The position numbers and the translations under genes were made by a program. Below are positions 27,919-60,457 of a stretch of 64,000 nt of DNA, piece by piece (the stretch's first letter is position 1; the number at the start of each line of letters is the position of its first letter). This stretch comes from Deltaproteobacteria bacterium (GTDB lineage Bacteria > Desulfobacterota > GWC2-55-46 > DRQE01): contig WGFM01000006.1 in NCBI GenBank assembly GCA_015492245.1, forward strand, positions 13,418-77,417, given 5' to 3'. The notes under the pieces are model-generated. The model was given only the letters and a program-made list of their open reading frames with translations, was not told the DNA's origin and did not search any database.

Positions 27919-27927
27919 CTATATTAT

Positions 27928-29265
27928 CTACTCGCCTCCTTCTGGTTCCATGCGGAATGTCATCCTTAATCCACCAACCTCTATTGTGTCGCCATCCTGG
28001 AGGACCTTCTCGGCGAGCTTCTCTCCGTTTATCTTAAGGGAGCTGAGCCCACCTTTTCTTATAATCTTGTAAACATCTCTACCCTTTATTATTACGGCAT
28101 GCCTTCTGGCAACCAGTATGCCCTCCACCCTTATGTCTGCCTCTTCATCCTTGCCTATGGTGGTGATGCTGCCAAGCCTGTGGGTGGAGCCATCCTCAAA
28201 CTCGAGGTATGCCCTGCTGTATGCCTTCGATTCCTTTACCTCGAGAGCGGGCTCGAGCTCGAGCACATCTGTGCCGGATGGGCTCTGAGAGGTGGAAGAA
28301 CCCGCCTCTTCGGGATCCTCTTTCTTCTCTGGCATATGAAATCTCAGCGTGTAGCGCCTTATCTTTATCTCGTCTCCATCGAAGAGTTCCTTCGTCTCTA
28401 TCCTTATGCCCTTGAAGTATGTGCCGTTGGCACTGTCAAGGTCTTTTATCATGTATCTGTCCCCCTTCTTCTCTATTGTGGCATGTTCTCTCGAGACCCC
28501 TGCCTCCTCGAGCACAATGGCGTTGGTGGTCTCCCTTCCTATGGTGAGCCCTTCTCCCACAGGGAAACTTCCCCTCACAGCACCTTCCTCCAAAACATCC
28601 ACCCAGGCTCCTTCCATGCCTTCATCTTCCCTGTCTTTATAATAGGATGTAAGGCCACTATCGTTCAGCAGTATGGAGTCCTCTGCGGGCCTGACCTTTA
28701 TGTCTCTATATACCTCAACGGAGAGGGGTCTTCCAAGGGACTCCACATAAAGAAGAAGCCTTTCAAGGGGTGAACCCTCTGTGCCCACATCCTCTGGCAG
28801 AAAGAGGGATACAGGCTTACCCTTTATGAATATGACAAAGGATAGCCTGCCCTCTGCAAGAAGGCTCATTATAACATCCTCTTCCCCCTGCTCTATCCTC
28901 TTTACCATGTCTTCAAGTGCCACCTTGTCTGTGGAGAAACCCTCCGAGGGGGTGCGGCTGAGCATGACGAGGAAACAGAGGAGGAGCTTTTTATCTGCAG
29001 TGTAGAGGCTTACATCAGCCCTCTCTGCTTCTTTATACCACTGGAAGAACTCCTTTACCGATGTGGGCAGTCTGGTCCCGGCCTCTACAAGGGCTCCACA
29101 GTAGAGCCTCTCTGCTATAACGAAGAGGTAGCGCCTTTCTCTGTCCCTTCTTGCGAGCACATAGCCATCGGCAACATCCTGCCCGAGCCTCTCAATCAGT
29201 TCATCTATTCTCGAGAAGGGATAATCCTCTTCAGAAAACATCTTTTTTATGTAAGAGCCTTCCAT
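27928..29265 (-). CDS. Double FHA-domain protein with uncharacterised N-terminal domain
   Basis: Two FHA cores (GRETTNAIVLEEAGVSREHATIEKKGDRYMIKDLDSANGTY and IGKDEEADIRVEGILVARRHAVIIKGRDVYKIIRKGGLSSLKING). The ~220-aa N-terminal domain is unassigned. Confidence 0.65.
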   Translation of the reverse strand: MEGSYIKKMFSEEDYPFSRIDELIERLGQDVADGYVLARRDRERRYLFVIAERLYCGALVEAGTRLPTSVKEFFQWYKEAERADVSLYTADKKLLLCFLVMLSRTPSEGFSTDKVALEDMVKRIEQGEEDVIMSLLAEGRLSFVIFIKGKPVSLFLPEDVGTEGSPLERLLLYVESLGRPLSVEVYRDIKVRPAEDSILLNDSGLTSYYKDREDEGMEGAWVDVLEEGAVRGSFPVGEGLTIGRETTNAIVLEEAGVSREHATIEKKGDRYMIKDLDSANGTYFKGIRIETKELFDGDEIKIRRYTLRFHMPEKKEDPEEAGSSTSQSPSGTDVLELEPALEVKESKAYSRAYLEFEDGSTHRLGSITTIGKDEEADIRVEGILVARRHAVIIKGRDVYKIIRKGGLSSLKINGEKLAEKVLQDGDTIEVGGLRMTFRMEPEGGE

Positions 29266-29292
29266 AGCGTATCCTCTCTCCTTGCAATGCCA

Positions 29293-30237
29293 CTATCCTG
29301 CCCCTTCACTGCCATAGAGTTCTTCGAGGACCCTGTCTGCTCCCATACTGAGGAGCCTTTCTGCAAGCTCCATGCCGAGCCCTTCTGCCCCATCAAGACT
29401 ACCCTCCGTGGAATCCTTATAGATCGTCCTGCCATCCACAGTGCCAACAAGGCCTGAAAGCCTGATTCTGCCTTCTTCTACCGTGGCATGGGCAGCTATT
29501 GGCACCTGGCATCCACCCTCGAGCCTTTCGAGAAAGGCCCTCTCAGCCCTTACACTTACAGAGGTCTCCCTGTGGTCAAGGAATGTCACAAGCTCGTTTA
29601 TGAACCCATCTGACACCCTTGTCTCTATACCCAGTGCACCCTGGCCTATGGCAGGCAGCATAACATCTTTCGGTATGTATTCGGTTACATGGTCCTCGAA
29701 GCCGAGCCTTTTCATGCCTGCACCTGCAAGAACTATTGCATCGTAGAGTCCCTGACGGAGCTTTCTTAAGCGGGTGTCCAGGTTTCCCCTGAGGGTTGAG
29801 ATTTTAAGATCCCTCCTTATGTGCCAGAGCTGACACTGCCTTCTGAGGCTTGATGTGCCTATATGTGCACCCTCTGGAAGCTCCTTAAGGGTGGTTCCAT
29901 CCTTTGATACAAGCACATCCCGTGGGTCCTCCCTCTCTGTTATGGCCTTAAGATGAAGCCCTGCTGGAAGGGCTGTGGGCACATCCTTCATGGAGTGGAC
30001 TGCAAGGTCAACCATTCCTGAGAGCAATGCCTCCTCTATCTCCTTTACAAAAAGCCCCTTTCCACCTATCTTTGCAAGGGGAGAATCGAGAATCTTGTCC
30101 CCCGTGGTCTTTATCTTCACGAGCTCAACACTGAGTTGGGGGTATCTTTTTTCAAGCTCTCTCTTCACCCATTCTGCCTGCCAGAGGGCGAGCTTGCTAC
30201 TCCGTGTGCCTATCCTTACAGTCTTTTCAGTTTCCAC
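29293..30237 (-). CDS. hemC: Hydroxymethylbilane synthase (porphobilinogen deaminase)
   Basis: 314 aa. VRIGTRSSKLALWQAEWV N-terminal motif and a dipyrromethane cofactor Cys region. Confidence 0.95.
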   Translation of the reverse strand: METEKTVRIGTRSSKLALWQAEWVKRELEKRYPQLSVELVKIKTTGDKILDSPLAKIGGKGLFVKEIEEALLSGMVDLAVHSMKDVPTALPAGLHLKAITEREDPRDVLVSKDGTTLKELPEGAHIGTSSLRRQCQLWHIRRDLKISTLRGNLDTRLRKLRQGLYDAIVLAGAGMKRLGFEDHVTEYIPKDVMLPAIGQGALGIETRVSDGFINELVTFLDHRETSVSVRAERAFLERLEGGCQVPIAAHATVEEGRIRLSGLVGTVDGRTIYKDSTEGSLDGAEGLGMELAERLLSMGADRVLEELYGSEGAG

Positions 30238-31531
30238 CAGCTTCCCTCGCCTTCTTTATTATTTCTTCCTCTTCAAGACCGAAGAGTTTGATGGCCGCCT
30301 CTATGAAGGTATCGCCTTCCACAGAGTGCGCCTCCTGCTTTATGCAGGTAACAGGGTTGTGGAGTATCTTCTTTACCATGGCCTGCGTCATGGCATCGAG
30401 GACCTTTCTTTCCCTGTCTGAAAGGTTCTTAAGTTGCGAGAGTGCCCTTTCAAGCTCTGCCTTTCTTATGCCCTCAAGCCTCTGCTGGAGTGCTATTATC
30501 GTGGGCACCACATCGAGGGACCTGACCCATCGGTATAGACCATCTATCTCTTCTGTCACTATGAGTTCTGCCTGCTCGGCCTCCTTGAGCCTTTCTTTAA
30601 GGTTTGCCTCCACCACGCCCTGAAGGTCGTCTATATCGAACACATAGGCATTGTCTATGTTGTTTACCAGCGGGTCTATGTTCCTCGGCACAGCAATATC
30701 TATGAAGAACATGGGGCAGTGCTTTCTTTCTTTCATCACGCCTGCCACATCCTCGGGCCTTATTATGAACTTTGGTGAGCCTGTGGATGCTATAACTATG
30801 TCTGTGTACTTCAGGTAATGGGAAAACTCTCTGAACATTATGGCCCTTCCCCTGAACTCTTTTGCAAGCTCCACCGCTCTCTCGTATGTCCTGTTGGCTA
30901 TTATGATTTCCTTTACCCCTGCCCCAAGAAGGCTCCGTGCCGAGAGCTCTGCCATCTCACCAGCACCTATGAGCATAACGGTTCTGCCTGTAAGCTCACC
31001 GAATATCTTCTTTGCAAGCTCCACTGCAACGGAGCTTACAGAAACGCTGGATGCACCTATGCGGGTCTCTGTTCTCACCCTTTTTGCAACAGAGAATGCC
31101 TTGTGGAAGAGCTTGTTTATGACCGTGCCTGCCGTATTGCTCTGGACAGCCATACCATAGGCATCTTTCACCTGCCCCAGTATCTGTGGCTCACCCATAA
31201 CCATGGAATCGAGCCCGCAGGCAACCCTGAAAAGATGCCTTGCACAGTCCTCACCTGCATGCACATAAAGATGGTCCTTTATATCATCATAGGGTATGTC
31301 GTGGTATTCGGAAAGAAACTTCTTTACCTCCCACACACCCTTTTCCATATCGTGCACCACACCTATGACCTCTACCCTGTTGCAGGTGGATATGATAACC
31401 GCCTCGTTTATGTTGTAATGGTTAACAAGCCTCCTGAGTGCACGAGGAAGCTCTTCTTCTCTGAAGGCAAACTGCTCCCTTATCTCAACAGGGGCTGTTC
31501 TGTGGTTGAGTCCTACAGTTACTATATTCAT
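30227..31531 (-). CDS. hemA: Glutamyl-tRNA reductase
   Basis: 434 aa. VGLNHRTAPVEIRE start, a catalytic Cys (STCNRVE) and an NADPH-binding GAGEMA. Confidence 0.95.
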   Translation of the reverse strand: MNIVTVGLNHRTAPVEIREQFAFREEELPRALRRLVNHYNINEAVIISTCNRVEVIGVVHDMEKGVWEVKKFLSEYHDIPYDDIKDHLYVHAGEDCARHLFRVACGLDSMVMGEPQILGQVKDAYGMAVQSNTAGTVINKLFHKAFSVAKRVRTETRIGASSVSVSSVAVELAKKIFGELTGRTVMLIGAGEMAELSARSLLGAGVKEIIIANRTYERAVELAKEFRGRAIMFREFSHYLKYTDIVIASTGSPKFIIRPEDVAGVMKERKHCPMFFIDIAVPRNIDPLVNNIDNAYVFDIDDLQGVVEANLKERLKEAEQAELIVTEEIDGLYRWVRSLDVVPTIIALQQRLEGIRKAELERALSQLKNLSDRERKVLDAMTQAMVKKILHNPVTCIKQEAHSVEGDTFIEAAIKLFGLEEEEIIKKAREAGGN

Positions 31532-31540
31532 CTCAAGCCC

Positions 31541-32359
31541 TCATCCCAGGAGCCCATGGGCTCCTCCTATCAAAAAATTTATAAAAAGAAACGAGCCGAG
31601 CAGCACCACAAAGGCTGCCACAGAGAATATGGCGGACTTTCTACCCCTCCATCCCGTGGTAAGTCTTCCATGCAGAAGTGCTGCATATAGAAACCATGTT
31701 ATAAGCGACCATATCTGCCTTGCCCCCCAGAACCAGTAGGTTCCAAAGGCATACTCAGACCATATTGCACCTGTTATTATTGCAAGTGTGAGAAGAGGAA
31801 ATCCATAGGTAAGACACCTGTAGTTGAGCTCATCGAGAATCTCAAGAGATGGTAGCACAAAATAAAGCCCTCTTATTTTGCGGCTTTTAAGGTAGCGTTC
31901 CTGTATAAGATACATTATGCCAAATATACATGCCATGGCAAAGAAGGCATTACCGAGGAACGCAAGCCCCACATGCACCGGCAACCAGTAGCTTTCGAGC
32001 ACCGGTGCAAGGGGCACAATCTCTTTGGGAAGGAAAGAGGCGGTTATAAGAAGAAACAATGCAAAGGGCGCCACAAACGCACCGAGCACCATCACCCTGT
32101 ACCTGTAGGAGAGCACTATGTAAAGAAGTATGGAGAGCCAGGCAAACAGTGTGAGGGACTCGTGCATGGTGGCGGCAGGAGTTCTGCCCGCCTCGAACCA
32201 TCGGCTGATGATGGTTATGCTATGGGCAACGAACCCACCATATACCATATACCCACCTGCCCTTGCAAACCCCTCACGATGAGTAAGTAGATATATTATG
32301 TAGATGATGGTTGCAAAAAAATAGAATGCCGCGGTTATATGGAAAAACAGAATGTCCAC
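31541..32359 (-). CDS. hemX: CcsA-like cytochrome c assembly family membrane protein (HemX-type, as in hemAXCDB operons)
   Basis: 272 aa with 8 TM segments and a Trp-rich WFWGARQIWSLITW segment of the CcsA/CcmC family. Confidence 0.65.
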   Translation of the reverse strand: MDILFFHITAAFYFFATIIYIIYLLTHREGFARAGGYMVYGGFVAHSITIISRWFEAGRTPAATMHESLTLFAWLSILLYIVLSYRYRVMVLGAFVAPFALFLLITASFLPKEIVPLAPVLESYWLPVHVGLAFLGNAFFAMACIFGIMYLIQERYLKSRKIRGLYFVLPSLEILDELNYRCLTYGFPLLTLAIITGAIWSEYAFGTYWFWGARQIWSLITWFLYAALLHGRLTTGWRGRKSAIFSVAAFVVLLGSFLFINFLIGGAHGLLG

Positions 32360-32363
32360 CGAT

Positions 32364-33038
32364 TTATGGCTTTCTTTCCTCTATCTTTATGCCCAGTTTT
32401 GAAAGGGTCATGTCAAGCCCTGTAACCTCTCTTAAAAGAGCGTTTATGTTTCTTCTGTCTCCTCGCCTTATGTATTCCAGCAATGGCGATTCCAGAAGCT
32501 GCTTGAATATCCTTAACTTTTTATCATCATTCGGTTTTTCTTTCAACATCATCTTTCTCACTGCCCCCACAATCTCCACAACCTTTGCGAACTCTTCTGG
32601 CAGAAACTCCTCGATCCTTTCACGAAGCCACCTTGCGGTGTAAGGGCTGCTGCCAGATGTGGATATTGCTATGGTTACATCGCCTCTCCTTACAACAGAG
32701 GGAACTATGAAGTTGCAGAGCCCGGGCCTGTCAACAACATTTATAAGCAGCCCCTCCTTTTCTGCCTCACCGAAAACCTTCTCGTTGAGCGATTGAGAAT
32801 CCGTGGCACTCACAACCAGGAAGGCACCCTCAAGGTCTCCACCACGGTATCTTCTGTTTATATGCTCTACAAGCCCCTTTCTTTTGAGCCCCTTAAGGCG
32901 CTCCGTAAGGGCAGGGCTTACAACCACCACATCCGCACCACACTCAAGTAGTGCCAGCACCTTCCTTTCGGCAACCCTTCCGCCACCAACCACCACACAT
33001 CTTTTGCCCTCTATATTGATGAAAACAGGATAAAACTT
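32364..33038 (-). CDS. sirC: Precorrin-2 dehydrogenase / sirohydrochlorin ferrochelatase (siroheme synthase N-terminal domain type)
   Basis: VVVGGGRVAERKVLALLECGADVVVVSP Rossmann motif, at CysG-N/Met8 family length. The likely start is the internal Met MKFYPVF. Confidence 0.8.
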   Translation of the reverse strand, partial: KFYPVFINIEGKRCVVVGGGRVAERKVLALLECGADVVVVSPALTERLKGLKRKGLVEHINRRYRGGDLEGAFLVVSATDSQSLNEKVFGEAEKEGLLINVVDRPGLCNFIVPSVVRRGDVTIAISTSGSSPYTARWLRERIEEFLPEEFAKVVEIVGAVRKMMLKEKPNDDKKLRIFKQLLESPLLEYIRRGDRRNINALLREVTGLDMTLSKLGIKIEERKP

Positions 33039-33230
33039 CATATCAACTAAGATTATAACCTTCTTATATATCAAAAACCATTAATTTCTTATTAAAAGGG
33101 CTTAAAGCACAAAATATCCTTTTTTCGAGGACAAACAGGCAGCTTCTGTCTCCATATATGGCCTGCCAAACATCCTTGACCACCTTCTGGTTAACTGTTA
33201 GAATTAGAAAAACTATTCATTTCTTTTACG

Positions 33231-34949
33231 GTGTGGAAGGGGATGGAGAAGCGCTGGAAGATTAGTCCTGCCAACGATGTGGTCAAGAAGAGGTTAGAAG
33301 ATGAGCTTAACATCCTTCCTGTAACCGCAGAGCTTCTGGTAAAAAGAGGTATGGCAGAGCCCGAAAGGGCATATTCCTTCCTCTCACCTGATCTCAAGGA
33401 CCTGTATGACCCTTTCTCCATGAAGGACATGGACAGGGCGGTAGAGCGTATCCTCCGTGCCATCCAGAGGGGGGAGAAGATATGCATCTGGGGAGACTAC
33501 GATGTGGATGGCACCACGGGCACCGCACTCTTCTACCTGTTCTTCAGAGAACTGGGCATAGATACAGGCTGCCATATACCCCACAGGCTGAAAGATGGCT
33601 ATGGACTCAATGCAGAGGGGGTAAAAAAACTCCATGCAGATGGTGTGAACCTTGTCATAACGGTTGATTGTGGTATATCCAGCCATGAGGAGATAGGGCT
33701 TGCCCGCTCCCTGGGTATGGACTGCATAGTGGTGGACCACCATGAGGTTCCACCCCGCATACCCCCTGCATGTGCGGTGCTGAACCCCAAGCAGAAAGAC
33801 TGCGACTATCCCTTCAAGGCCCTTGCAGGCGTTGGGGTTGCCTTCAACCTTGTAATAGCCATAAGGGCAAGGTTGCGCAAGCTTGGCTGGCACATGGAGC
33901 TACCGAACCTCAAGCGCTATCTCGATGTGGTAGCCATAGGGACCGTTGCAGATGTGGTGCCCCTCGTGGATCAGAACAGGATCCTTGTAAGCTACGGGCT
34001 CAAGGAGCTTGCATCAACCAGAAGGGTGGGGCTGGCAAGCCTCATGGATGTGGCAGGCATAAGCGGGCTCAAACCCACTGCAGAACAGATCGCCTTCCAG
34101 CTTGCACCCCGGATAAACGCCTCCGGCAGGATGGACAGTGCAGACACGGCTCTCAGGCTTCTTGTAACCCGGGACCCACAGGAGGCAAGAAAACTTGCAG
34201 GGCTTCTCAACAGAGAGAATTCGAAACGCCAGAGTGTGGAAGAAAGGATTCTGCGGGAAGCCGTCTCGATGGTAGAAGAACCCCTTGAAGACAGGGCCAT
34301 GGTGCTTGCCCGTGAAGGCTGGCACCCGGGTGTCATAGGTATAGTCGCCTCGCGCCTGATGGAAAGGTTTACAAGGCCTGCCATACTTCTCTCCATAGAT
34401 GGTAATACCGTGAAGGGCTCTGCACGGGGAACCGCTGGTTGCAATATCATAGATACACTCCATAGATGCGAGGCATACCTTGAAAAATACGGGGGACACC
34501 GCTCGGCAGCTGGCCTCACGCTCAAAAGAGAGAACCTCGATGCATTCAGAAAAGAATTCATAGGGCTTGTGAACTCCACCCTTACCGCTGAAGACCTGGT
34601 TCCACTGGTAGAGCTGGATGCACAGGTTACACTGGATGAACTCAAGCCACGCCTTGTGGATGAGATAGAAAGGCTGTCTCCCTTTGGCCACAAGAACGAA
34701 AGGCCGCTTCTCTGTATTATGGGGGCAAACATACTCCATACCGAAGTGGTGAAGGACAGACACCTGCGGGTGATGATAAAACACAACGGCACACTGCAAA
34801 ACGGCATAGCCTTCGACATGGCAGGATACCATCCCATAAGGGAGGGGCTTTTCGACATAGCATTCTACCCTTACATAGATGACTGGCAGGGGCTCAGAAA
34901 AGTAAGGCTTCGTATAGAAGAGCTGAAACCTTCCTTGCAAACATCTTGA
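33231..34949 (+). CDS. recJ: Single-stranded-DNA-specific exonuclease RecJ
   Basis: DHH motifs (IWGDYDVDGTTG, DHH) and a DHHA1 domain. Confidence 0.9.
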   Translation: MWKGMEKRWKISPANDVVKKRLEDELNILPVTAELLVKRGMAEPERAYSFLSPDLKDLYDPFSMKDMDRAVERILRAIQRGEKICIWGDYDVDGTTGTALFYLFFRELGIDTGCHIPHRLKDGYGLNAEGVKKLHADGVNLVITVDCGISSHEEIGLARSLGMDCIVVDHHEVPPRIPPACAVLNPKQKDCDYPFKALAGVGVAFNLVIAIRARLRKLGWHMELPNLKRYLDVVAIGTVADVVPLVDQNRILVSYGLKELASTRRVGLASLMDVAGISGLKPTAEQIAFQLAPRINASGRMDSADTALRLLVTRDPQEARKLAGLLNRENSKRQSVEERILREAVSMVEEPLEDRAMVLAREGWHPGVIGIVASRLMERFTRPAILLSIDGNTVKGSARGTAGCNIIDTLHRCEAYLEKYGGHRSAAGLTLKRENLDAFRKEFIGLVNSTLTAEDLVPLVELDAQVTLDELKPRLVDEIERLSPFGHKNERPLLCIMGANILHTEVVKDRHLRVMIKHNGTLQNGIAFDMAGYHPIREGLFDIAFYPYIDDWQGLRKVRLRIEELKPSLQTS

Positions 34950-34975
34950 CACAAAGGGTTTGAAACATATATATT
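34946..34975 (+). promoter_or_regulatory. Sigma70-like promoter (TTGACA, 17-18 nt, TATATT) for the polyamine/ATP-grasp operon
   Basis: TTGACA overlaps the recJ stop. An AT-rich -10 sits at 34969..34975. Confidence 0.4.
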
Positions 34976-35080
34976 AGTTTGTTGCATCGTCTTCGAGTTC
35001 AAAAAAGACAGATGGGGGGCAGACAGCCATGTGCAGGCTGTGTCCAGCATCTTCAAAAAACTTAATTGAGGAGGCTTAAG

Positions 35081-36136
35081 TTGGCAAAAGAAGTTTTTGA
35101 CATGGAAAAGAGGAAGAAGTTTATAAAAAGACCTGTCAGGCCCATACCCATAGAGCCAAAGGCGAGCATATCAGAGCTTGTCGAAAGGATGGGCCATACG
35201 GCCTTCCAGGCAAAGAACCTCTCCCATGCAGCAGATATATGGGAGGAGATGATTCGTGGCCGGACAACCATATTCTTTGGTTTCGCAGGTGCCATGATAC
35301 CAGCCGGTATGCGTGAGCTCATGGTCTTCCTCATAAAGAACAGATACATCGATTGTCTCGTGTCCACCGGGGCGAACCTCTTCCACGATATACACGAGAC
35401 CCTTGGCTGGAAACACTGGCAGGGTAGCCACATGGTAAACGACAGGGATCTGCGTAGCGCCGGGGTGGACAGAATATACGATGTGTTCGCCATAGAAGAG
35501 GAGTTCAACTCATCGGATGAATACATCTACAACTTCTCATACACACTGGAAGAACGCCCGTACACCACGAGGGAGTTTTTCCATCTCATGGGCAAAGACC
35601 TTGCAGGACGCACAAGAAACGAGGGCATACTCACCGCGGCATACAGGGCTGGTGTTCATGTCTACTGCCCTGCCCTTGGAGACTCATCGATAGGAATAGC
35701 CCTCGCATTGAGGGATGGCGATGACAACTTCATGTTCGACATAATAGCCGATGTTAAAGAGACTGCATATCTTACGGCAAGGGCAAAGAACTCGGGCATC
35801 GTGTTCATAGGCGGTGGGGTGCCGAAGAACTTCATACAGCAGTCAGAGGTAACGGCAAACATGATGTGCAAGAGAACCCCTGGGCACAAGTATGCACTGC
35901 AGATTACGACCGACTCTCCACACTGGGGCGGGCTCAGCGGCTGCACCTTCGAGGAGGCCCAGAGCTGGGGCAAGATAGCGAGAAGGTCAAAGAGGGTAAC
36001 TGTGAACTGTGAGTCCACAATAGCACTACCACTTATAGTGAGTGCACTGGCACAGAGGCTCAAGGGGTTCAGGAGAACGCTGCCAGAGCTTTCGGTAAAG
36101 GGTGCGCAGAGGGTAAAAAAGAGGATATGGGATTGA
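35081..36136 (+). CDS. Deoxyhypusine synthase-like protein (candidate homospermidine synthase)
   Basis: DHS family motifs (IFFGFAGAMIPAGMRELMVFLIKNRYIDCLVSTGANL). Start ambiguous: TTG at 35081 follows GAGGAGG by 6 nt, ATG at 35102 is an alternative, and the ORF track uses TTG 35066. Confidence 0.7.
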   Translation: MAKEVFDMEKRKKFIKRPVRPIPIEPKASISELVERMGHTAFQAKNLSHAADIWEEMIRGRTTIFFGFAGAMIPAGMRELMVFLIKNRYIDCLVSTGANLFHDIHETLGWKHWQGSHMVNDRDLRSAGVDRIYDVFAIEEEFNSSDEYIYNFSYTLEERPYTTREFFHLMGKDLAGRTRNEGILTAAYRAGVHVYCPALGDSSIGIALALRDGDDNFMFDIIADVKETAYLTARAKNSGIVFIGGGVPKNFIQQSEVTANMMCKRTPGHKYALQITTDSPHWGGLSGCTFEEAQSWGKIARRSKRVTVNCESTIALPLIVSALAQRLKGFRRTLPELSVKGAQRVKKRIWD

Positions 36137-37041
36137 TCCAGAGAGAAGAGGGCAGTTTCAGCTTCGGTGGCATAGGCAAAGAGGGGGTGGCTAAAAGCCC
36201 GCTCTTTTCCGTGTTGCCTGTGCCCTATGACCTTACCACCTCCTACATGGGTGGGGCAAGAAGGGGGGCCTATGCCATAATAGATGCATCGATGAACATG
36301 GAACTGTACGATGAAGAGCTTTGTTGCGAGCCCTGGAAGGCAGGCATAGAAACACTCACACCACTTGAGGCAACCACCCTGGGGCCAGAGAGGATGGTCG
36401 AAAGGGTTGAGGAGGCCTGTGGGGAAATCCTGGGACTCGGTAGAATCCCGGTTGTGCTCGGTGGAGAACACAGCATAACAACAGGCACAGTGAGGGCACT
36501 CGAGAAGAGGTATCCCGGGCTTTCGGTCCTCCAGCTCGATGCACACGCGGACATGCGTAACTCCTACCAGGAAAGCCCCTACAACCACGCATGTGTTGCA
36601 AGAAGAATCAGTGAGATATGTGGGCTCGTGCAGGTCGGTACAAGAAGCCTGAGTGCCGAGGAGGCAGAGTTCCTCGACACTACGGATACGGTCAGGACAC
36701 ACTTTGCAAAGGATATTGTGGAAAGAGGCATGCCCTGTGAGGACATCCTCCGTAATCTTACAGGGGATGTATTCATAACCATAGACCTGGATGTGTTCGA
36801 TCCGGCCATAATGCCATCCACAGGCACGCCTGAGCCAGGTGGGCTCGGCTGGTATGATGTTACAGGGCTTCTCAAGTATATAGCAGAAGGCAGAAACATC
36901 GTTGGCTTCGATGTGGTGGAGCTGAGCCCCGTGGCTGGTAATGTAGCGCCCGACTTTCTTGCCGCAAGACTTGTATACAAGCTCATGGGGTATATAATAA
37001 AAAACAGGCAGAAGGGAATGAGCAGTGCTGTATGTTCCTAA
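36127..37041 (+). CDS. speB: Agmatinase (arginase family)
   Basis: [16 protein letters not shown] and IDLDVFDP Mn-binding motifs. It overlaps the upstream gene by 10 nt. Confidence 0.85.
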
Positions 37042-37573
37042 GAGGATATTCTTTACAAAGGGTGTGGGCTGCCACAAGGAAGAACTGCACTCCTTTGAGC
37101 TCGCCCTGCGAGACGCAGGAATAGAGAAGTTCAACCTCGTGCAGGTCTCGAGCATATTCCCTCCGGGCTGCAGGATAATACCTCGAAGCCAGGGGGTAAA
37201 AAGACTCGCCCCGGGGCAGATAACCTTCTGTGTTATGAGTAAACTCTCGAGCAACGAGCCACGCCGCCTCATAGCTGCAAGCGTGGGCTGTGCCATACCG
37301 ATGGACAAAAAACTCTATGGATACCTGAGCGAGCATCATGCCTACGGGCAGACCGAGGCAATCGCAGGTGATTACGCAGAAGACCTTGCAGCGGCAATGC
37401 TTGCCTCCACACTGGGTATAGAGCTCGATGAAAATCTGGGATGGGATGAAAAAAAAGAGATATACAGAATAAGTGATAAGATAGTGAAAACCTCGAATGT
37501 TACGCAGTCTGCCATAGTCAAGGGTGATGGCAAATACACCACAGTGGTTGCAGCGGCAGTGCTTCTGTTCTGA
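37025..37573 (+). CDS. pdaD: Pyruvoyl-dependent arginine decarboxylase (archaeal type)
   Basis: FFTKGVG...VSS self-cleavage region. 182 aa, the typical PdaD size. Confidence 0.8.
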
Positions 37574-37599
37574 AACAGAAAATCCCGTCTCAAGAAACC

Positions 37600-38604
37600 A
37601 TGAAGATAGCCATAACATGCAACATAAAGGCAGAGGTTCCGCCTCATCTCGAAGAATGCTATGCCGAATGGGACGACCAGGAGACCATAGAGAGTGTCAG
37701 AGAGGCACTGCTTGAAAGATGCCAGGAGGTCTTCATCGTAGAGGCAGACCAGCATGCCCCCGCAAGGCTTCAGGGTCTCATGCCCAATATGGTCTTCAAC
37801 ATGGCCGAAGGTATGGGCGGAGACAGCAGGGAATCATTCATCCCGGCAATCCTCGAGGTTCTGGGAATACCCTATACAGGCTCACCACCACTCACCCTGG
37901 GGCTGTGTCTCAATAAACTGAGGACAAAACAGATACTCTCCTGCTACGGGATACCAACGCCACGCTGTTTCGTGGTAGAAAGTGAATACAGGGGTATGGA
38001 AGGAGGGCTTGAGTTTCCCCTGATAGTCAAGCCTGTCCACGAGGGCTCGAGCAAGGGGATAAGGGATGACTCCCTTGTCCGTAGTGAAGAGGAACTTGTC
38101 GAGAGGATACACAGGGTCATTGACACCTACGGGCAGCCCGCCCTTGTGGAGGAATACCTCGATGGAAGGGAGTTCACCGTGGCCATTCTTGGCAACGCAG
38201 ATGATATAAGGGTCTTGCCCATAGTGGAGATAGACTACTCCACCATACCAGAGGGGGCAAACCCCATATACTCCTATGAGGCCAAATGGATCTTCGATCG
38301 GCCTGAGGACCCGCTCGACATATTCCGCTGTCCCGCACCGATAGACAAGGAGCTTGAAAGGGCGGTATCAAACATGGCACTGGACTCTTTCCGTGCCCTT
38401 GGTGTGAGAGACTGGTGCAGAATAGACATAAGATGCGACTCTCGGGGCAGACCCCATGTGCTGGAGCTCAATCCCCTGCCCGGAATCCTGCCTGCTCCAC
38501 AATGTAACTCCTGCTTTCCCAAGGCCGCAAGGGCTGCGGGGCTTACTTTCAGCGAGCTTGTAAACACCGTGGTTGATATTGCAAGAAAAAGGCATGGAAT
38601 ATGA
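37600..38604 (+). CDS. ATP-grasp ligase, D-alanine-D-alanine ligase-like (paralog 1)
   Basis: N-terminal Ddl-type domain (KIAITCNIK..), a central ATP-grasp (PLIVKPVHEGSSKGI, EEYLDGREFTV) and C-terminal ELNPLPG. Confidence 0.7.
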   Translation: MKIAITCNIKAEVPPHLEECYAEWDDQETIESVREALLERCQEVFIVEADQHAPARLQGLMPNMVFNMAEGMGGDSRESFIPAILEVLGIPYTGSPPLTLGLCLNKLRTKQILSCYGIPTPRCFVVESEYRGMEGGLEFPLIVKPVHEGSSKGIRDDSLVRSEEELVERIHRVIDTYGQPALVEEYLDGREFTVAILGNADDIRVLPIVEIDYSTIPEGANPIYSYEAKWIFDRPEDPLDIFRCPAPIDKELERAVSNMALDSFRALGVRDWCRIDIRCDSRGRPHVLELNPLPGILPAPQCNSCFPKAARAAGLTFSELVNTVVDIARKRHGI

Positions 38605-39617
38605 GTGTAGATACCATAAGGATAATATTCAACGACGAAGGGGCCGACACATTCGTGGTGGACGACGAAGAGATAGAATACGGCGATATAAGGGAGAGCG
38701 TGGAGGATATAGGGGAGTGTCTCGAAAGGCTGGGGTATCGCACCATACTGACACCCCTGACACAGGAAGGGTTCGATGGGTTCCTCAAAGAACTCACCGA
38801 TGGCAGGGCTGAGCTTGTGTTCAACCTCTGTGAAGGTGCCTTCCTCAACAGCAAGTTCGAGATGAACATTGCAGCCCTCCTCGAGCTCTATGGCATAAGG
38901 TTCACCGGAAACACCTCTATAACACTTGGGGTGGCGCTGAACAAGGGATGGACAAAGGACATCCTCAAAGGGGCTGGAATAAAGACCCCTGCCCACTTCG
39001 TAACAGATGAGCCAGGCACATGGCTCCCAGAGGGACTTGAGTTCCCACTCATAGTGAAGCCACTCTCAGAGGATGCAAGCCTTGGCATAGAGACAGACTC
39101 TGTGGTATATACCGCAGGTGAGCTCTCGAAAAGGATAGAGCACATACTGGAGGAGTATTCTCACCAGGCCCTTGTGGAAAGATTCATAGATGGCCGTGAG
39201 TTCAACATATCCATAATGGGTAACGATGATGCGGTGGTGGTGCTTCCACCTTCAGAGATAGACTTCTCCGAGTACCCGGAAGAACTGCCACGAATATGCT
39301 CCTACGAGGCAAAATGGATAGAGATAAGCCCCCTGTATCGCAAGACCCTTCCTGTGTGCCCTGCCCCTGTATCAGAGGAGCTTAAAAAGGGGCTCGAGGC
39401 AACTGCCATCAGGGCATACAGGGCGCTCTCCTGCAGGGACTATGCACGGGTCGATATGAGACTCGACCAGGAAGACAACCTCTGGGTGCTCGAGGTAAAT
39501 CCGAATCCCGACATATCGAAAGATGCGGGCTTTGCAAGGGCAGCCAGGGCGGCAGGAATGGAGTATCACCAGTTCATAGGAGAACTCGTAAGTATTGCGG
39601 CAAAAAGATACGACTAA
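38601..39617 (+). CDS. ATP-grasp ligase, D-alanine-D-alanine ligase-like (paralog 2)
   Basis: Same architecture as paralog 1 (PLIVKPLSEDASLGI, ERFIDGREFNI, LEVNPNPD). Its start overlaps the paralog 1 stop (ATGA). Confidence 0.7.
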   Translation: MSVDTIRIIFNDEGADTFVVDDEEIEYGDIRESVEDIGECLERLGYRTILTPLTQEGFDGFLKELTDGRAELVFNLCEGAFLNSKFEMNIAALLELYGIRFTGNTSITLGVALNKGWTKDILKGAGIKTPAHFVTDEPGTWLPEGLEFPLIVKPLSEDASLGIETDSVVYTAGELSKRIEHILEEYSHQALVERFIDGREFNISIMGNDDAVVVLPPSEIDFSEYPEELPRICSYEAKWIEISPLYRKTLPVCPAPVSEELKKGLEATAIRAYRALSCRDYARVDMRLDQEDNLWVLEVNPNPDISKDAGFARAARAAGMEYHQFIGELVSIAAKRYD

Positions 39618-40089
39618 ACCCATCATACGCAGCACCACCAGAGAGGACAGGGAACACTTCCTCTCCATACTCAAGGGGTTCGAACACTTTACAGATGAAG
39701 AAAAGGATTGTGCCATAGAGCTACTTGATATATACTTAAAAGAGCCGTTTGAATATCTATGGCTTACAGCCCTTGTGGAAGGTCAACCCGTGGGCTTCGC
39801 CTGCTATGGAGAGGCAGCCCTTTCCTACGGAGCATACGATATATACTGGATAATGGTAGAGCCCGCCTGGCATCACCGCGGGGTAGGTAAACGCCTTATG
39901 GAACAGGTGGAAGAAGAGGCCCTCAAGGCAGGTGGAAGGAAGCTCATAATAGAGACCTCAAGCCTTCCCCTTTATGCAGGAGCAAGGCGTTTCTACAGAG
40001 TCTGTGGCTTCACAGAAGAGGCAAAAATAAGAGATTACTACAGACCAGGAGACCACAAGCTCATATACACGAAAACCCTGAGGAGGTAA
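39595..40089 (+). CDS. GNAT family N-acetyltransferase
   Basis: Acetyl-CoA binding motif HHRGVGKRLMEQVEEEA. Confidence 0.65.
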   Translation: MRQKDTTKPIIRSTTREDREHFLSILKGFEHFTDEEKDCAIELLDIYLKEPFEYLWLTALVEGQPVGFACYGEAALSYGAYDIYWIMVEPAWHHRGVGKRLMEQVEEEALKAGGRKLIIETSSLPLYAGARRFYRVCGFTEEAKIRDYYRPGDHKLIYTKTLRR

Positions 40090-40095
40090 GAAACC

Positions 40096-40713
40096 TTGGA
40101 AATAGAAGCAGTAAAGAAGATATACAATGGTTATTCCAGTGTATACGAGGCCCTGTTCAAACGGTTCTTCTACCCCAGGATAAAACATGCCATACAGTCC
40201 ATGAATATACAGCCCGGGGAATGGGTGCTCGATGTGGGGATAGGTACAGGGCTTTCGCTGAATGTATTTCCAGGGCACTGCAAGATAGTTGGCATAGATC
40301 TGTCAAGGGAGATGCTCAAAAAGGCCCAGGAGAAGGTAAGAATCCTTGGACTCCACAATGTACAGCTGTTCGAGATGGATGCCATGAACCTCAACTTTGC
40401 AGACGATAGCTTCGATAAGGTCTTTATCTCCCATGTGGTGAGTGTGGTGCCAGACCCCTACAGGGTGATGAACGAGGTAAAGAGGGTCTGCAAAAAGGGT
40501 GGCAGGATAGTCATAGTGAATCACTTCCGCAGCAGCAACAAACTCATAGGGAATCTCGAAAAGTTCATAACACCACTCAGTAAAAGGATGGGCTGGCGGA
40601 GTGATCTTGCCATGGATGAGTTCATAGCGAAGAGCGACATCAGGGTTGAAAAAAAATTCAAGCTCAAGAAGATAGACTTCTGGCACCTTATATTTGCAAC
40701 CAACGAAAAATAA
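40096..40713 (+). CDS. Class I SAM-dependent methyltransferase
   Basis: VLDVGIGTG glycine-rich motif I. D at the end of the IVGIDLS strand. Confidence 0.7.
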   Translation: MEIEAVKKIYNGYSSVYEALFKRFFYPRIKHAIQSMNIQPGEWVLDVGIGTGLSLNVFPGHCKIVGIDLSREMLKKAQEKVRILGLHNVQLFEMDAMNLNFADDSFDKVFISHVVSVVPDPYRVMNEVKRVCKKGGRIVIVNHFRSSNKLIGNLEKFITPLSKRMGWRSDLAMDEFIAKSDIRVEKKFKLKKIDFWHLIFATNEK

Positions 40714-40727
40714 AACCGGTACAAGAC

Positions 40728-41225
40728 TTGCATGCAACGGACAGACAGAGGCCCCTCTCTGTAAGGATCCTTCCCATGAGCGAGGAAGACATGGACGAAG
40801 TGATAAGGATCGAAGGGCTCTCTTTTCCCAACCCCTGGCGGCGGGAGTTCTTCGAGCGGGAGCTCAAAAACCCTGTATCCTACGCCTTTGTTGAGAAGAT
40901 AGAAGAACGGGGCAGACCAAGGCTTGTTGCATACATTGTCTTCTGGATAGTTACAGGAGAGGCACATATACTCAACATAGCCGTTGACCCGGAGCTGCGC
41001 AGGCAGGGCCTTGCAAGAAGACTCCTTGCAACGGCACTGGCCTTCATGGAAGAACGGGGGGTGGAAGTGGTCCACCTCGAGGTAAGGAGGTCCAACAGGG
41101 CAGCGATAAGCCTTTACAGAAAGTTCGGCTTCGAAGAGGTATACATAAGAGAAAACTACTACGGCAACGAAGATGCCATAGTGATGAGGCTTGTCTTCAG
41201 ATACAAAAGCCGTATCATCCCATAA
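40728..41225 (+). CDS. GNAT acetyltransferase, RimI-like (ribosomal-protein-alanine N-acetyltransferase family)
   Basis: IRIEGLSFPNPW and HILNIAVDPELRRQGLARRLL RimI-like motifs. The real start may be the internal Met at about 40776. Confidence 0.65.
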   Translation: MHATDRQRPLSVRILPMSEEDMDEVIRIEGLSFPNPWRREFFERELKNPVSYAFVEKIEERGRPRLVAYIVFWIVTGEAHILNIAVDPELRRQGLARRLLATALAFMEERGVEVVHLEVRRSNRAAISLYRKFGFEEVYIRENYYGNEDAIVMRLVFRYKSRIIP

Positions 41226-41234
41226 GAGAGCTTT

Positions 41235-41993
41235 ATGACCACCATCAGTATAACGGAGACCGTAGAGGTAATATCCAACATAGCCATATCCCCGGGTTAC
41301 CACAGGATAACCCTGGGCTGGACCCCCCTTGAGGTAAGGCCTGGCCAGTTCGTGATGCTCAAGACAAGCCCCACCATGGACCCACTTCTCAGAAGACCCT
41401 TTGCCATATACAACATCCATGACGATGGGACGGAGATACTCTACAGGGTGGTTGGTAGAGGCACCGCCCTTCTGTCCAGACTCAAAAGAGGAGACAGGCT
41501 TGATGTGCTCGGCCCCCTTGGCAAGGGGTTCGAGCTACCAGAGGACAGGGAGACCATCATGGTTGCAGGTGGTATGGGCATCGTGCCATTCTACATGGTG
41601 GCAAAGGAACTCCTTAAGATGGGCAAGACCACGCAGCTCATCTACGGTGTACGAAGGGAAGAAGAGTTGATACTTGCAGATGATATAATAGGGCTCGGCA
41701 CAGAGGCACACCTTGTGGTAGAGGAAAGGGACAACATGCTGCCCACAGACATACTGGAAGAGATGACCATAGGCGACAGAAGAGTGCTTGCATGTGGGCC
41801 AGGGGGGATGCTCAAGAAGGTGGCCTCCCTGTGTGAGGCCAGGGGTGCAGAGTGTATGGTATCTGTCGAGACCAGCATGGCCTGTGGCATGGGTGTGTGC
41901 ATGGGATGTGCAGTGAAGACCACAGATGGATACAGGATGGTATGTGCCGATGGGCCTGTCTTCGATGCGAAGGAGCTTGGATGGAAGGGCTGA
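41235..41993 (+). CDS. pyrK: Dihydroorotate dehydrogenase electron transfer subunit
   Basis: FAD/NAD-binding FNR-like fold and a C-terminal 2Fe-2S Cys cluster (CGMGVCMGCAVK). Confidence 0.9.
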   Translation: MTTISITETVEVISNIAISPGYHRITLGWTPLEVRPGQFVMLKTSPTMDPLLRRPFAIYNIHDDGTEILYRVVGRGTALLSRLKRGDRLDVLGPLGKGFELPEDRETIMVAGGMGIVPFYMVAKELLKMGKTTQLIYGVRREEELILADDIIGLGTEAHLVVEERDNMLPTDILEEMTIGDRRVLACGPGGMLKKVASLCEARGAECMVSVETSMACGMGVCMGCAVKTTDGYRMVCADGPVFDAKELGWKG

Positions 41994-42910
41994 ACACCAC
42001 GGTCCAGATAGCAGGGGGGTTCGTGCTCAAGAACCCGGTGATGGTCGCCTCGGGCACCTTTGGTTACGGGCTTGAGTTCGCAGGGCTCATGGACATCTCC
42101 CTGCTCGGGGCTGTCGTTGTAAAGGGGCTCAGCCTCAGGCCCAGGGAGGGAAACCCTCCACCCCGTATCATCGAGACCCCCGCAGGTCTCATAAACGCCA
42201 TAGGGTTACAGAACATAGGGGTGGAACGCTTCCTGAAGGACAAACTCCCAGAGATTAAAAGGCTCGGTGCCACCGTTGTGGCGAACATCTTTGGCGAGTC
42301 CATAGATGAATACAGTGAGGTTGCCCGCCTGCTCAGCGGGGCAGAGGGCGTAAGTGCCATAGAGATAAACATATCCTGCCCGAATGTGAAAAAGGGGGGG
42401 CTCAGGTTCGGTCAGGACCCTGCCTCTGCCAGAGAGGTGGTGGAGGCCGTAAGAAAATCCACAGAGCTACCGATTATAACCAAGCTCTCTCCGGATGCAC
42501 CTGATCTCAAGGCGATGGTAGAGGCGGTGGAGTCTGCAGGCACGGATGCCATATCCCTCATAAACACCATACCTGCCATGGCCATAGATGTGGAAAGAAG
42601 GCGCCCCGTCTTATCGACCATGACAGGGGGACTATCAGGGCCTGCCATAAAGCCCATAGCCTTGAGGCTTGTGTGGCAGGTTGCAGGATTCGCGAAGGTG
42701 CCTGTAATAGGCATGGGCGGGATAATGACAGGCCGTGATGCCCTTGAGTTCATAATTGCAGGGGCCTGCGCCATTCAGGTGGGAACCCTCAACCTCGTAG
42801 AGCCAGATGGTGCACTCAGGGTGATAAGGGAGATGGAGGCCTACATGCACAAGAAGGGCATCAGAAGTATCGGAGAGCTTACTGGCTCGCTTGTCCTGCC
42901 AGAGAGATGA
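41981..42910 (+). CDS. pyrD: Dihydroorotate dehydrogenase catalytic subunit (class 1B)
   Basis: LKNPVMVASGTFGYG start and FMN-binding motifs. It overlaps the pyrK stop. Confidence 0.9.
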   Translation: MEGLNTTVQIAGGFVLKNPVMVASGTFGYGLEFAGLMDISLLGAVVVKGLSLRPREGNPPPRIIETPAGLINAIGLQNIGVERFLKDKLPEIKRLGATVVANIFGESIDEYSEVARLLSGAEGVSAIEINISCPNVKKGGLRFGQDPASAREVVEAVRKSTELPIITKLSPDAPDLKAMVEAVESAGTDAISLINTIPAMAIDVERRRPVLSTMTGGLSGPAIKPIALRLVWQVAGFAKVPVIGMGGIMTGRDALEFIIAGACAIQVGTLNLVEPDGALRVIREMEAYMHKKGIRSIGELTGSLVLPER

Positions 42911-60041: not shown

Positions 60042-60440
60042 ATGCAAAGAGTGGCCTTCATAACAGCGATGATAATGATGCTCCCTCTTGTGGTGCAGGC
60101 AGAGGTGATAAGTGAATCCCTGGTACCTGTAAAGAGGGTCGTGATCCTATCGGGCGAGACCATCCCACTGATAGGACCAAACACAACCCAGCTCGTATTC
60201 TCAACAGCAGGTGGTATAGGGCTTAAGAATCTTGAAAGGCTGGACATAGTCGTAGACAGATACGAGCAGGTTCAGGGCATAAGGGTTACCTACAGAACAG
60301 GCGCAACCCTTCTGCGCAGCCTGTATATTACAAACATAAAAACCATTGTGCTTGAAAAGGCTTCGACCCAGGTAGGTGCAAAAAGGGATACTGTACATAT
60401 AAGAGTTGTTACAGCCGATGAACTGACAGAACCATGGTAA
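60042..60440 (+). CDS. Small secreted beta-rich hypothetical protein
   Basis: Signal MQRVAFITAMIMMLPLVVQA. It lies immediately upstream of, and is probably co-transcribed with, the CsgG-like gene. Confidence 0.4.
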   Translation: MQRVAFITAMIMMLPLVVQAEVISESLVPVKRVVILSGETIPLIGPNTTQLVFSTAGGIGLKNLERLDIVVDRYEQVQGIRVTYRTGATLLRSLYITNIKTIVLEKASTQVGAKRDTVHIRVVTADELTEPW

Positions 60441-60457
60441 AGGAGGTATTCTGGATT

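Follow-up and report, generated by a model that had tools for sequence, protein, structure and literature searches.

The stretch analysed here (the window) comprises 64,000 nucleotides (nt) of a Deltaproteobacteria bacterium genome (assembly GCA_015492245.1, contig WGFM01000006.1, positions 13,418 to 77,417). On its plus strand lies a closely packed block in which three polyamine-type genes, i.e., a SpeY-like gene, an agmatinase-like gene (SpeB) and a gene for a pyruvoyl-dependent arginine decarboxylase (PvlArgDC, also written PvlADC), are followed by two paralogous ATP-grasp ligases (AGa and AGb), a small acetyltransferase (GNAT1), a methyltransferase (MT) and RimI (Table 1). Domains of the window proteins were called with Pfam and NCBIfam, and bit scores are given against the model cutoffs. 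In our reading, which we consider evenly poised between right and wrong, the block is a lineage-specific juxtaposition of (A) a homospermidine pathway, (B) a module for N-acetylated amides that works independently of nonribosomal peptide synthetases (NRPS), and (C) the passengers RimI, PyrK and PyrD; the individual substrate assignments are held at lower confidence than this composite.

Table 1. Features of the plus-strand gene block, with positions counted from the first nucleotide of the window.
Feature	Position	Strand	Basis or remark
Sigma-70-like promoter motif TTGACA-18-TATATT	34946..34975	+	RecJ-SpeY gap; 11/12 positions match
SpeY-like, DS/DHS fold	35081..36136	+	PF01916 319 bits; TTG start
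Agmatinase-fold ureohydrolase (SpeB)	36133..37041	+	PF00491; TIGR01230 216.8 bits vs 174.3
Pyruvoyl-dependent arginine decarboxylase (PvlArgDC = PvlADC)	37025..37573	+	NF009064 223.9 vs 207; PF01862
AGa, Ddl-like ATP-grasp ligase	37600..38604	+	Dala_Dala_lig_C
AGb, paralogous Ddl-like ATP-grasp ligase	38601..39617	+	Dala_Dala_lig_C
GNAT1, small acetyl-CoA-type N-acetyltransferase	39595..40089	+	PF00583
MT, PmtA-like class I S-adenosylmethionine (SAM) N-methyltransferase	40096..40713	+	NF045882 141.4 bits vs cutoff 390
RimI, ribosomal protein S18-alanine N-acetyltransferase	40728..41225	+	TIGR01575 125.2 bits vs 86.4
PyrK, dihydroorotate dehydrogenase electron-transfer subunit	41235..41993	+	tightly packed with the run
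PyrD, dihydroorotate dehydrogenase B catalytic subunit	~41981..42910	+	PF01180 in syntenic locus L003; 54-81% identity across clade loci

All eight open reading frames (ORFs) from SpeY to RimI, which a first-pass annotation of the same DNA had listed, were found at their positions with the domains claimed for them. Their junctions measure, in order, -4, -17, +26, -4 (ATGA), -23, +6, and +14 nt, with the SpeY and agmatinase-like genes sharing 4 nt and the AGb start lying inside the AGa stop, and no terminator-like site was found on the plus strand between genes of the block. The tight packing behind the proposed eight-gene operon thus holds, but its end at 41225 does not: PyrK follows RimI after 9 nt, PyrD overlaps PyrK, and the gene beyond PyrD lies on the opposite strand. 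The co-directional block consists of ten genes ending with PyrD at 42910, and its right end is housekeeping, PyrK and PyrD being passengers. The promoter-like site reported ahead of SpeY is present; promoter-like sites across the scanned region showed no excess over shuffled sequence, so the site is a motif and does not demonstrate function. The TTG start of SpeY has a GGAGG ahead of it (35070-35074), and the same start is used in public gene calls for the same contig (metagenome-assembled genome (MAG) GCA_026999635.1).

Conservation of the block was assessed by scanning AGa-specific peptide patterns against one genome per species, which gave at least 572 loci; context was counted in the best 80 of these, onto which the window proteins were mapped by tblastn. 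Only AGa-AGb-GNAT1 was retained in nearly all of the 80, with variable flanks, and the eight genes, whose synteny the first-pass annotation had proposed to check, do not form one conserved unit. The trio occurs in Thermodesulfobacteriota (“Deltaproteobacteria” MAGs), Desulfuromonadales/Geobacteraceae, Ignavibacteriota (including Melioribacter), Kryptonia, Bacteroidota, Chlorobiaceae, Acidobacteriota, Nitrospinota, and Nitrospirota, with distant versions in Desulfovibrio and Planctomycetota, and the proteins of this ligase module are 50-60% identical across phyla. SpeY, SpeB, MT, and RimI are confined to the window's clade and one Syntrophaceae locus, and PvlADC is found in Nitrospinota as well; besides the window's clade, PyrK-PyrD (PyrKD) is found with the trio at three loci, two of Nitrospinota and one of Bacteroidota, where it lies upstream. 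Synteny in the window's clade extends to the flanks, from RecJ to PyrD, so much of the gene order there is inherited. Within this clade, about ten loci carry both SpeY and SpeB, three SpeY only (L011, L012, L031), three SpeB only (L016, L017, L020), and three neither (L003, L014, L029), and PvlADC stands directly upstream of the ligases throughout, including the loci without SpeY and SpeB.

Outside the window's clade, the gene adjoining the module, usually right after GNAT1, encodes a radical SAM protein of the KamA (lysine 2,3-aminomutase) family. It was found by clustering the ORFs that flank the module, and the adjacency was seen in about 50 loci fetched with AGa and in four fetched with GNAT. 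The module KamA scores 407 bits against the lysine 2,3-aminomutase of Clostridium subterminale (PDB 2A5H); its best model is AblA (468 bits, below the cutoff of that model), and the EpmB model reaches 235 bits. Asp293 and Asp330 hold the lysine side chain and are replaced in glutamate 2,3-aminomutase; their equivalents are retained in 42-43 of the 44 sequences compared. The flanks of the KamA-containing four-gene unit differ phylum by phylum. With KamA as their usual partner, the ligases are not polyamine-specific enzymes.

In the complete genome of Desulfovibrio mangrovi and in a genome like that of Oleidesulfovibrio alaskensis G20, the unit KamA-AG-AG-GNAT (AG, ATP-grasp ligase) lies behind a sigma-54-dependent activator situated just upstream (L089:3857-5293, L092:2874-4310), which suggests sigma-54 control there; a paper on the Desulfovibrio sigma-54 regulome does not mention the module genes. 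In D. mangrovi (CP104208.1) the unit is followed by a 585-aa protein (L089:9629-11386) with a weak GNAT match and a domain of the histone-deacetylase/acetylpolyamine-amidohydrolase type, and an acetyl group on the product could be cycled on and off there.

The two ligases are named D-alanine--D-alanine ligase (Ddl) in public records. They belong to the Ddl family but are not Ddl: the best scores against Ddl models are 190.2 bits for AGa and 135.7 bits for AGb compared with a cutoff of 243 (NF002378), and all equivalog models stay far below cutoff. AGa has a Ddl as its best PDB match (1.9e-35), and both proteins are about 30% identical or less to solved Ddl structures. AlphaFold2 models (pLDDT 86.6 for AGa and 88.3 for AGb) confirm the Ddl fold and no more, and Foldseek with the AGb model returned Ddl structures as top matches (TM 0.77-0.84, 22-24% identity). 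On a neighbour-joining (NJ) tree, AGa and AGb each form their own family on a long branch from E. coli DdlB. Cell-wall genes of the mur/fts type were not found around the ligases in about 90 loci, where the neighbours are GNAT, KamA, or PvlADC.

For the active sites, 74 AGa and 74 AGb sequences were aligned to E. coli DdlB, the numbering of which is used here; the DdlB reference agrees with the PDB alignment over residues 47-305. The residues for ATP/Mg binding and the acyl-phosphate (K97, K144, E180, E187, K215, R255, D257, E270, and N272) are kept in 74/74 AGa and 74/74 AGb, and since none is lost both paralogues should be active. The earlier description of a paralogous Ddl-like ATP-grasp pair is borne out; both proteins keep these residues, and both score far under the Ddl cutoffs. 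In Ddl, E15, S150, and S281 anchor the ammonium of the first substrate and the carboxylate of the second. At E15, S150, Y216, S281, and L282, i.e., the D-Ala subsite, AGa has E, S, W, S, and C, and AGb has Y (variable), A, W, A, and G, together with an invariant Asp at G276. The AGb combination A/D/A/G at S150, G276, S281, and L282 is found in all 24 PvlADC-linked loci and in 40-50 of the 50 KamA-linked ones. The window's clade has a hydrophobic residue in the E15 column of AGb, where 39 of 50 other sequences have Glu; as E15 lies in a badly aligned N-terminal stretch, this difference is given little weight, and E15 of AGa is only probable. The residue pattern suggests that AGa joins two amino-acid-like substrates and that AGb takes a positively charged nucleophile without a carboxylate. 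No alignment column is fixed differently between PvlADC-linked and KamA-linked sequences of AGa or of AGb, so the chemistry is probably the same in all lineages; the idea that the ligases were re-tooled for polyamines in the window's clade was dropped for want of such a column.

Which partner belongs to which ligase can be read from gene fusions and split operons. An exhaustive search of 1.84 billion cluster representatives returned 1461 relatives at E ≤ 1e-30, of which the best 150 were inspected. Tandem AG-AG proteins of 560-790 aa make up 31 of these 150 (P0244-P0327), and in the 11 with two readable E.N..P motifs one motif is of the Gly type (AGa-like) and the other is not. KamA is fused to an AGa-like domain in both orders, one protein each (P0250, P0292), an AGb-like domain is fused to a GNAT1-like one in P0387, and three further ATP-grasp::GNAT fusions were found; a comparison of the fusion proteins with NCBIfam yielded no specific name. 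Three gene orders occur in Nitrospinota: PvlADC-AGb-GNAT1-KamA-AGa (L042/L086), a closed three-gene operon PvlADC-AGb-GNAT1 in which a stop and a start codon overlap and after which a convergent rRNA operon lies (L087, one of only three loci from a metagenome scan with the Nitrospinota AGb), and KamA-AGa alone (L039, L048, L061). Fusions and split operons thus pair KamA with AGa, and GNAT1 (with PvlADC, where present) with AGb.

Four arrangements have an ATP-grasp gene immediately after PvlADC: the first two Nitrospinota ones, PvlADC-AGa-AGb-GNAT1 in the window's clade, to which L043 is also assigned, and PvlADC-third ATP-grasp-AGa-AGb-GNAT1 (L023, L027, L031, L040). In a rough NJ analysis, PvlADC-linked loci fall at three or more places of the AGa tree. 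PvlADC is the sole constant neighbour from the polyamine side; should an amine made by these genes be conjugated, agmatine, and not homospermidine or putrescine, is the candidate. From the first-pass annotation's proposal of a polyamine-conjugation pathway, a link of the ligases to an arginine-derived amine stays plausible; homospermidine or putrescine as the partner appears improbable, since SpeY and SpeB come and go.

Several loci depart from these patterns. A third, unrelated ATP-grasp protein with a weak ATPgrasp_ST match is encoded immediately before AGa in a sub-clade, at L023 (5173-6093), L027 (2077-3015), L031 (7254-8159), and L040 (221-1141), and in the Nitrospirota locus L063 (2507-3430), where the product may bear one further amide bond. 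P0390 joins an ATP-grasp domain of the L-amino-acid-ligase type to a Ddl-like one. In the Syntrophaceae MAG (L043:6351-10714), the genes after SpeY-SpeB-PvlADC-AGa-AGb are a different methyltransferase, two ORFs resembling glycosyltransferases by eye, and a methyltransferase-like ORF, with no GNAT1 following; the product there may carry another decoration or be attached to something. Two loci of Thermoguttaceae (Planctomycetota; L090:234-737, L091:171-674) have a 167-aa Cys-rich ORF with a CxxCxxCC-like motif before AG-AG-GNAT, with neither KamA nor PvlADC adjacent; this ORF was considered as a PvlArgDC and rejected, being Cys-rich and not a PvlArgDC.

GNAT1 has its best PDB match in 2R7H (1.9e-27), titled “putative D-alanine N-acetyltransferase”, the gene of which itself lies in the KamA-AG-AG-GNAT operon of the O. 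alaskensis G20-like genome; no NCBIfam models other than rimI (40.7 bits) and those for AAC(6') match it at E ≤ 1e-3. MT is a full-length homologue of the phosphatidylethanolamine N-methyltransferase PDB 8YS9 (5.7e-32) that does not reach the PmtA equivalog cutoff. It is a clade-specific addition at the position held by KamA in other phyla and may N-methylate the product of the module. For RimI, named in the first-pass annotation as a RimI-like member of the pathway, the identity stands, its TIGR01575 score exceeding the cutoff, but not the role: it is a bona fide RimI, a housekeeping enzyme found adjacent only in the window's clade, and most likely a passenger unrelated to the pathway. PyrK-PyrD lies within a few kb of the ligases in three phyla, downstream in the window's clade (41235-42910) and upstream in Nitrospinota (L042:2985-4726, L087:3860-5654) and Bacteroidota (L060:2578-4280); chance, a common origin, or a link not yet recognised could explain this proximity.

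Genes 1-3 match a pathway that is already described. SpeY homologues from several bacterial phyla, every one that was tested, convert two agmatines to N1,N9-bis(guanidino)homospermidine (G44G), from which a ureohydrolase yields homospermidine (Li et al., J Biol Chem 2026, PMC13625781). The SpeY-associated agmatinase homologues of Caldilinea aerophila and Winogradskyella algicola are active on G44G and not on agmatine; in C. aerophila the cluster consists of SpeY, SpeB, and an archaeal-type pyruvoyl arginine decarboxylase, its SpeY made G44G, its SpeB gave homospermidine, and the purified SpeB was G44G-specific (PMC13625781). The window SpeY matches PF01916 over its full length, i.e., has the deoxyhypusine-synthase fold, and passes the generic deoxyhypusine synthase model (TIGR00321, 306.1 vs 304.25) but fails the SpeY-type models (NF002699, 273 vs 500; NF001980, 251 vs 450), so that its assignment rests on fold and context, namely its clustering by overlap with the agmatinase-like and PvlArgDC genes. 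PvlArgDC matches PF01862 end to end (209.9 bits) and exceeds the equivalog cutoff of NF009064; a VSS motif is readable in its translation, the Ser-Ser of which we take to be the self-processing site. By analogy, gene 1 is probably a diagmatine (bis-guanidino-homospermidine) synthase and gene 2 a diagmatine ureohydrolase releasing homospermidine, and the expected route runs from arginine through agmatine and G44G to homospermidine. Of the two products that the first-pass annotation had allowed, homospermidine is thus retained and putrescine, which is not expected on a route via G44G (PMC13625781), is not. A DHS-like gene upstream of PvlADC in L023 (3528-4502) and L027 (90-1064), two members of the sub-clade with the third ATP-grasp gene, is 24% identical to the window SpeY, compared with 62-94% elsewhere, and may be another kind of DHS homologue.

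A mechanism that accommodates these data would have two layers. In layer A, PvlArgDC would decarboxylate arginine to agmatine, SpeY would join two agmatines to G44G, and the agmatinase-like enzyme would take off two ureas to leave homospermidine. In layer B, KamA would supply beta-lysine (in this genome from a gene encoded elsewhere, if at all), and AGa, via an acyl-phosphate, would make a first amide bond in which beta-lysine is involved. AGb would then couple the resulting carboxylate to a cationic amine without a carboxylate, as the loss of Ser and Leu from the nucleophile subsite and the gain of the invariant Asp suggest; the foremost candidate for this amine is the agmatine made by the neighbouring PvlArgDC. 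The remaining free amine would be acetylated by GNAT1, and in the window's clade an N-methylation by the PmtA-like MT may follow, unless MT is a lipid enzyme with no part in the module. Extended to all lineages, AGa-AGb-GNAT with KamA, and in some lineages PvlArgDC, would be a widespread, undescribed primary-metabolic pathway of anaerobic and microaerophilic bacteria from at least eight phyla, in which a small N-acetylated cationic pseudopeptide of a new class, built from beta-lysine and with an agmatine cap, is made without NRPS and serves as a compatible solute or in place of a polyamine. The window's clade would have merged this pathway physically with homospermidine synthesis and would N-methylate its product. 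This extended proposal is offered tentatively and is itself open to considerable doubt.

Other explanations were weighed against the composite reading. The model of the first-pass annotation, in which all eight genes form one pathway and the ligases acylate or aminoacylate homospermidine or putrescine before N-acetylation and N-methylation, would agree with the tight packing behind one promoter-like site without an internal terminator-like site, with SpeY, SpeB, and PvlADC preceding AGa-AGb in about ten clade loci and L043, and with the existence of ATP-grasp ligases that join polyamines to carboxylates, e.g., glutathionylspermidine synthetase. It appears improbable because SpeY and SpeB are dispensable neighbours, one or both being missing beside the ligases in L003, L011, L012, L014, L016, L020, and L029 and in all other phyla, whereas the conserved partner of the trio is KamA; in addition, RimI belongs to the ordinary housekeeping set, and a SpeY pathway would not be expected to yield putrescine (PMC13625781). 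A similarly small chance is given to a modification of macromolecules, in which AGa and AGb would attach a residue, beta-lysine or some other, to a protein or an envelope precursor and GNAT1 would acetylate that residue. Precedents are RimK, the beta-lysylation of EF-P, and D-aspartate ligase acting on peptidoglycan precursors; the strong conservation of the module proteins across phyla and the housekeeping neighbours RecG, DnaG, RimI, and RecJ would fit, as would the KamA homologues that supply beta-lysine for EF-P in gamma-proteobacteria. The module KamA is, however, nearer to AblA/LAM than to EpmB, the 80 loci show no recurrent gene for efp, a ribosomal protein, or a carrier protein, the window's cluster, in which no gap exceeds 26 nt, leaves no space for a small substrate ORF, and AGa retains Ddl-like residues for binding small molecules. 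That AGa and AGb are ordinary Ddl isozymes for the cell wall, as their public name and their best sequence and fold matches would have it, is very improbable indeed in view of their scores below the subfamily cutoff, their separate families on the tree, the absence of S150, S281, and L282 from AGb, and their constant occurrence, even fused, as a heterotypic pair with GNAT and KamA and not with mur/fts genes.

A stronger competitor is that the genes are neighbours by history, i.e., that the homospermidine genes and the trio are independent, that the trio makes a beta-lysine-derived product (with KamA encoded elsewhere) and never uses agmatine or a polyamine, and that only the gene order was inherited. 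The RecJ-to-PyrD synteny, which marks the order in the clade as largely vertical, about 50 loci of other phyla that have the trio and KamA but no polyamine gene within 10 kb, the lack of residues distinguishing PvlADC-linked from KamA-linked ligases, and PyrK-PyrD near the module in Nitrospinota too, suggesting common ancestry, would all agree with it. We nevertheless consider it unlikely, though far from negligible, as PvlADC stays upstream of an ATP-grasp gene through four rearrangements, including the closed operon of L087 and the Syntrophaceae locus with its unrelated flanks, and never leaves while SpeY and SpeB are gained and lost nearby. Some observations weigh against the composite reading and its agmatine-capped product. 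Neither the 64 kb window nor the 10 kb around any clade locus contains KamA, so the beta-lysine supply in the window's clade is assumed, and most KamA-linked loci lack a nearby arginine decarboxylase, so that the use of agmatine there would need one encoded elsewhere. The adjacency of PvlADC and ligases may stem from only one to three evolutionary events, possibly in related lineages, and PyrKD near the module in both the window's clade and Nitrospinota hints that the region has a common origin. The argument from the AGb subsite depends on the sequence alignment to DdlB and on the roles of these residues in Ddl, and MT could be a plain phospholipid N-methyltransferase.

The remainder of the window holds ordinary chromosomal genes. 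Upstream of the block and divergent from RecJ lies a haem and cytochrome c biogenesis cluster (26368-33074, minus strand) with uroporphyrinogen methylase/HEM4, an FHA-domain protein, porphobilinogen deaminase, glutamyl-tRNA reductase, a CcsA-like protein, and a sirohaem-synthase-like NAD-binding protein. Two proteins with a CsgG domain (curli-type secretion-channel family) are encoded at 5329-7320 (minus strand) and 60434-61873 (plus strand), one of which carries TPR repeats and adjoins an 821-aa TPR protein. An Rfam scan found no RNA family in the window and only rRNA and tRNA in eight related loci. Between two records of one contig, L001 (ENA) and L002 (NCBI), the genes for glutamyl-tRNA reductase (window 30227-31531) and AGb (38601-39617) are each broken into two ORFs in the ENA copy and whole in the NCBI copy and the window, a difference that looks like a fault of assembly or polishing in one of the two.

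The AGa-AGb-GNAT(-KamA/PvlADC) module is a real and widespread one to which the name Ddl is systematically misapplied, and it is without characterisation in the searchable literature. Nothing was found there on two ATP-grasp enzymes together with a GNAT and either KamA or PvlArgDC, while the “Amidoligases” survey of Iyer et al. 2009, which lay outside that check, may have noted the module. The first-pass annotation was accordingly right that the combination is not a characterised pathway, even though its genes 1-3 have been described (PMC13625781). The homospermidine part adds little new; the interest lies in the module as NRPS-independent amide synthesis by ATP-grasp enzymes, which is present in tractable species (O. 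alaskensis G20, D. mangrovi, Desulfuromonadales, relatives of Geobacter, and Melioribacter), and one of its protein families already has a member with an orphan crystal structure, 2R7H. Identification of the product would mend a systematic misannotation and define a new bacterial use of beta-lysine, and might reveal a further fate of agmatine beside polyamine synthesis.

Compared with known systems, genes 1-3 represent the same three enzyme families clustered in the manner of C. aerophila (PMC13625781), with the difference that the window SpeY stays under both SpeY-type NCBIfam cutoffs; ligases beside the pathway go unmentioned in that paper. Ddl and Van enzymes share with AGa and AGb the fold and the ATP/Mg and acyl-phosphate residues, and Ddl is their nearest solved structure; AGa and AGb differ in having Trp for Tyr216, in the lack of D-Ala2-binding residues in AGb, in scores below the cutoffs, and in forming an obligate heterotypic pair beside GNAT and KamA or PvlADC. 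Glutathionylspermidine and trypanothione synthetases use ATP to link a carboxylate to an amine of a polyamine through an amide bond, as the ligases would in the polyamine-conjugate model, but the conserved partner of AGa/AGb is KamA and not a polyamine pathway, and no model of the glutathionylspermidine-synthetase type was among their Pfam matches or the NCBIfam matches listed (25 of 41), which were of Ddl-type and generic ATP-grasp models. In the synthesis of N-acetylglutaminylglutamine amide, Ngg (a fusion of GNAT and ATP-grasp) acts with AsnO to make a small N-acetylated, amide-capped peptide without NRPS. The module shares this GNAT and ATP-grasp logic, which is found fused in the module as well, but draws on other subfamilies of both and on other building blocks, TIGR03103 giving a faint match to the RimI gene and none to GNAT1. 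AblA/AblB make the compatible solute N-epsilon-acetyl-beta-lysine in methanogens and have been proposed for Pelobacter carbinolicus (PMC3543383). As in the module, a lysine 2,3-aminomutase and a GNAT share one operon, and the module KamA scores best against AblA; the module adds two ATP-grasp ligases, and the window has no KamA. AblB-type acetyltransferases have about 275 aa, compared with about 160 aa for GNAT1, among whose NCBIfam matches there is no AblB-type model. In the fungal E-64 pathway, an ATP-grasp enzyme and an amide-bond synthetase act in turn, a carboxylate being joined first to an amino acid and next to an amine, e.g., agmatine (Nat Chem Biol 2025, PMC12568646). What this pathway would have in common with the module is two stand-alone ligases working stepwise and an agmatine cap; its product is a eukaryotic secondary metabolite, the second enzyme is not an ATP-grasp protein, and neither an aminomutase nor a GNAT takes part.

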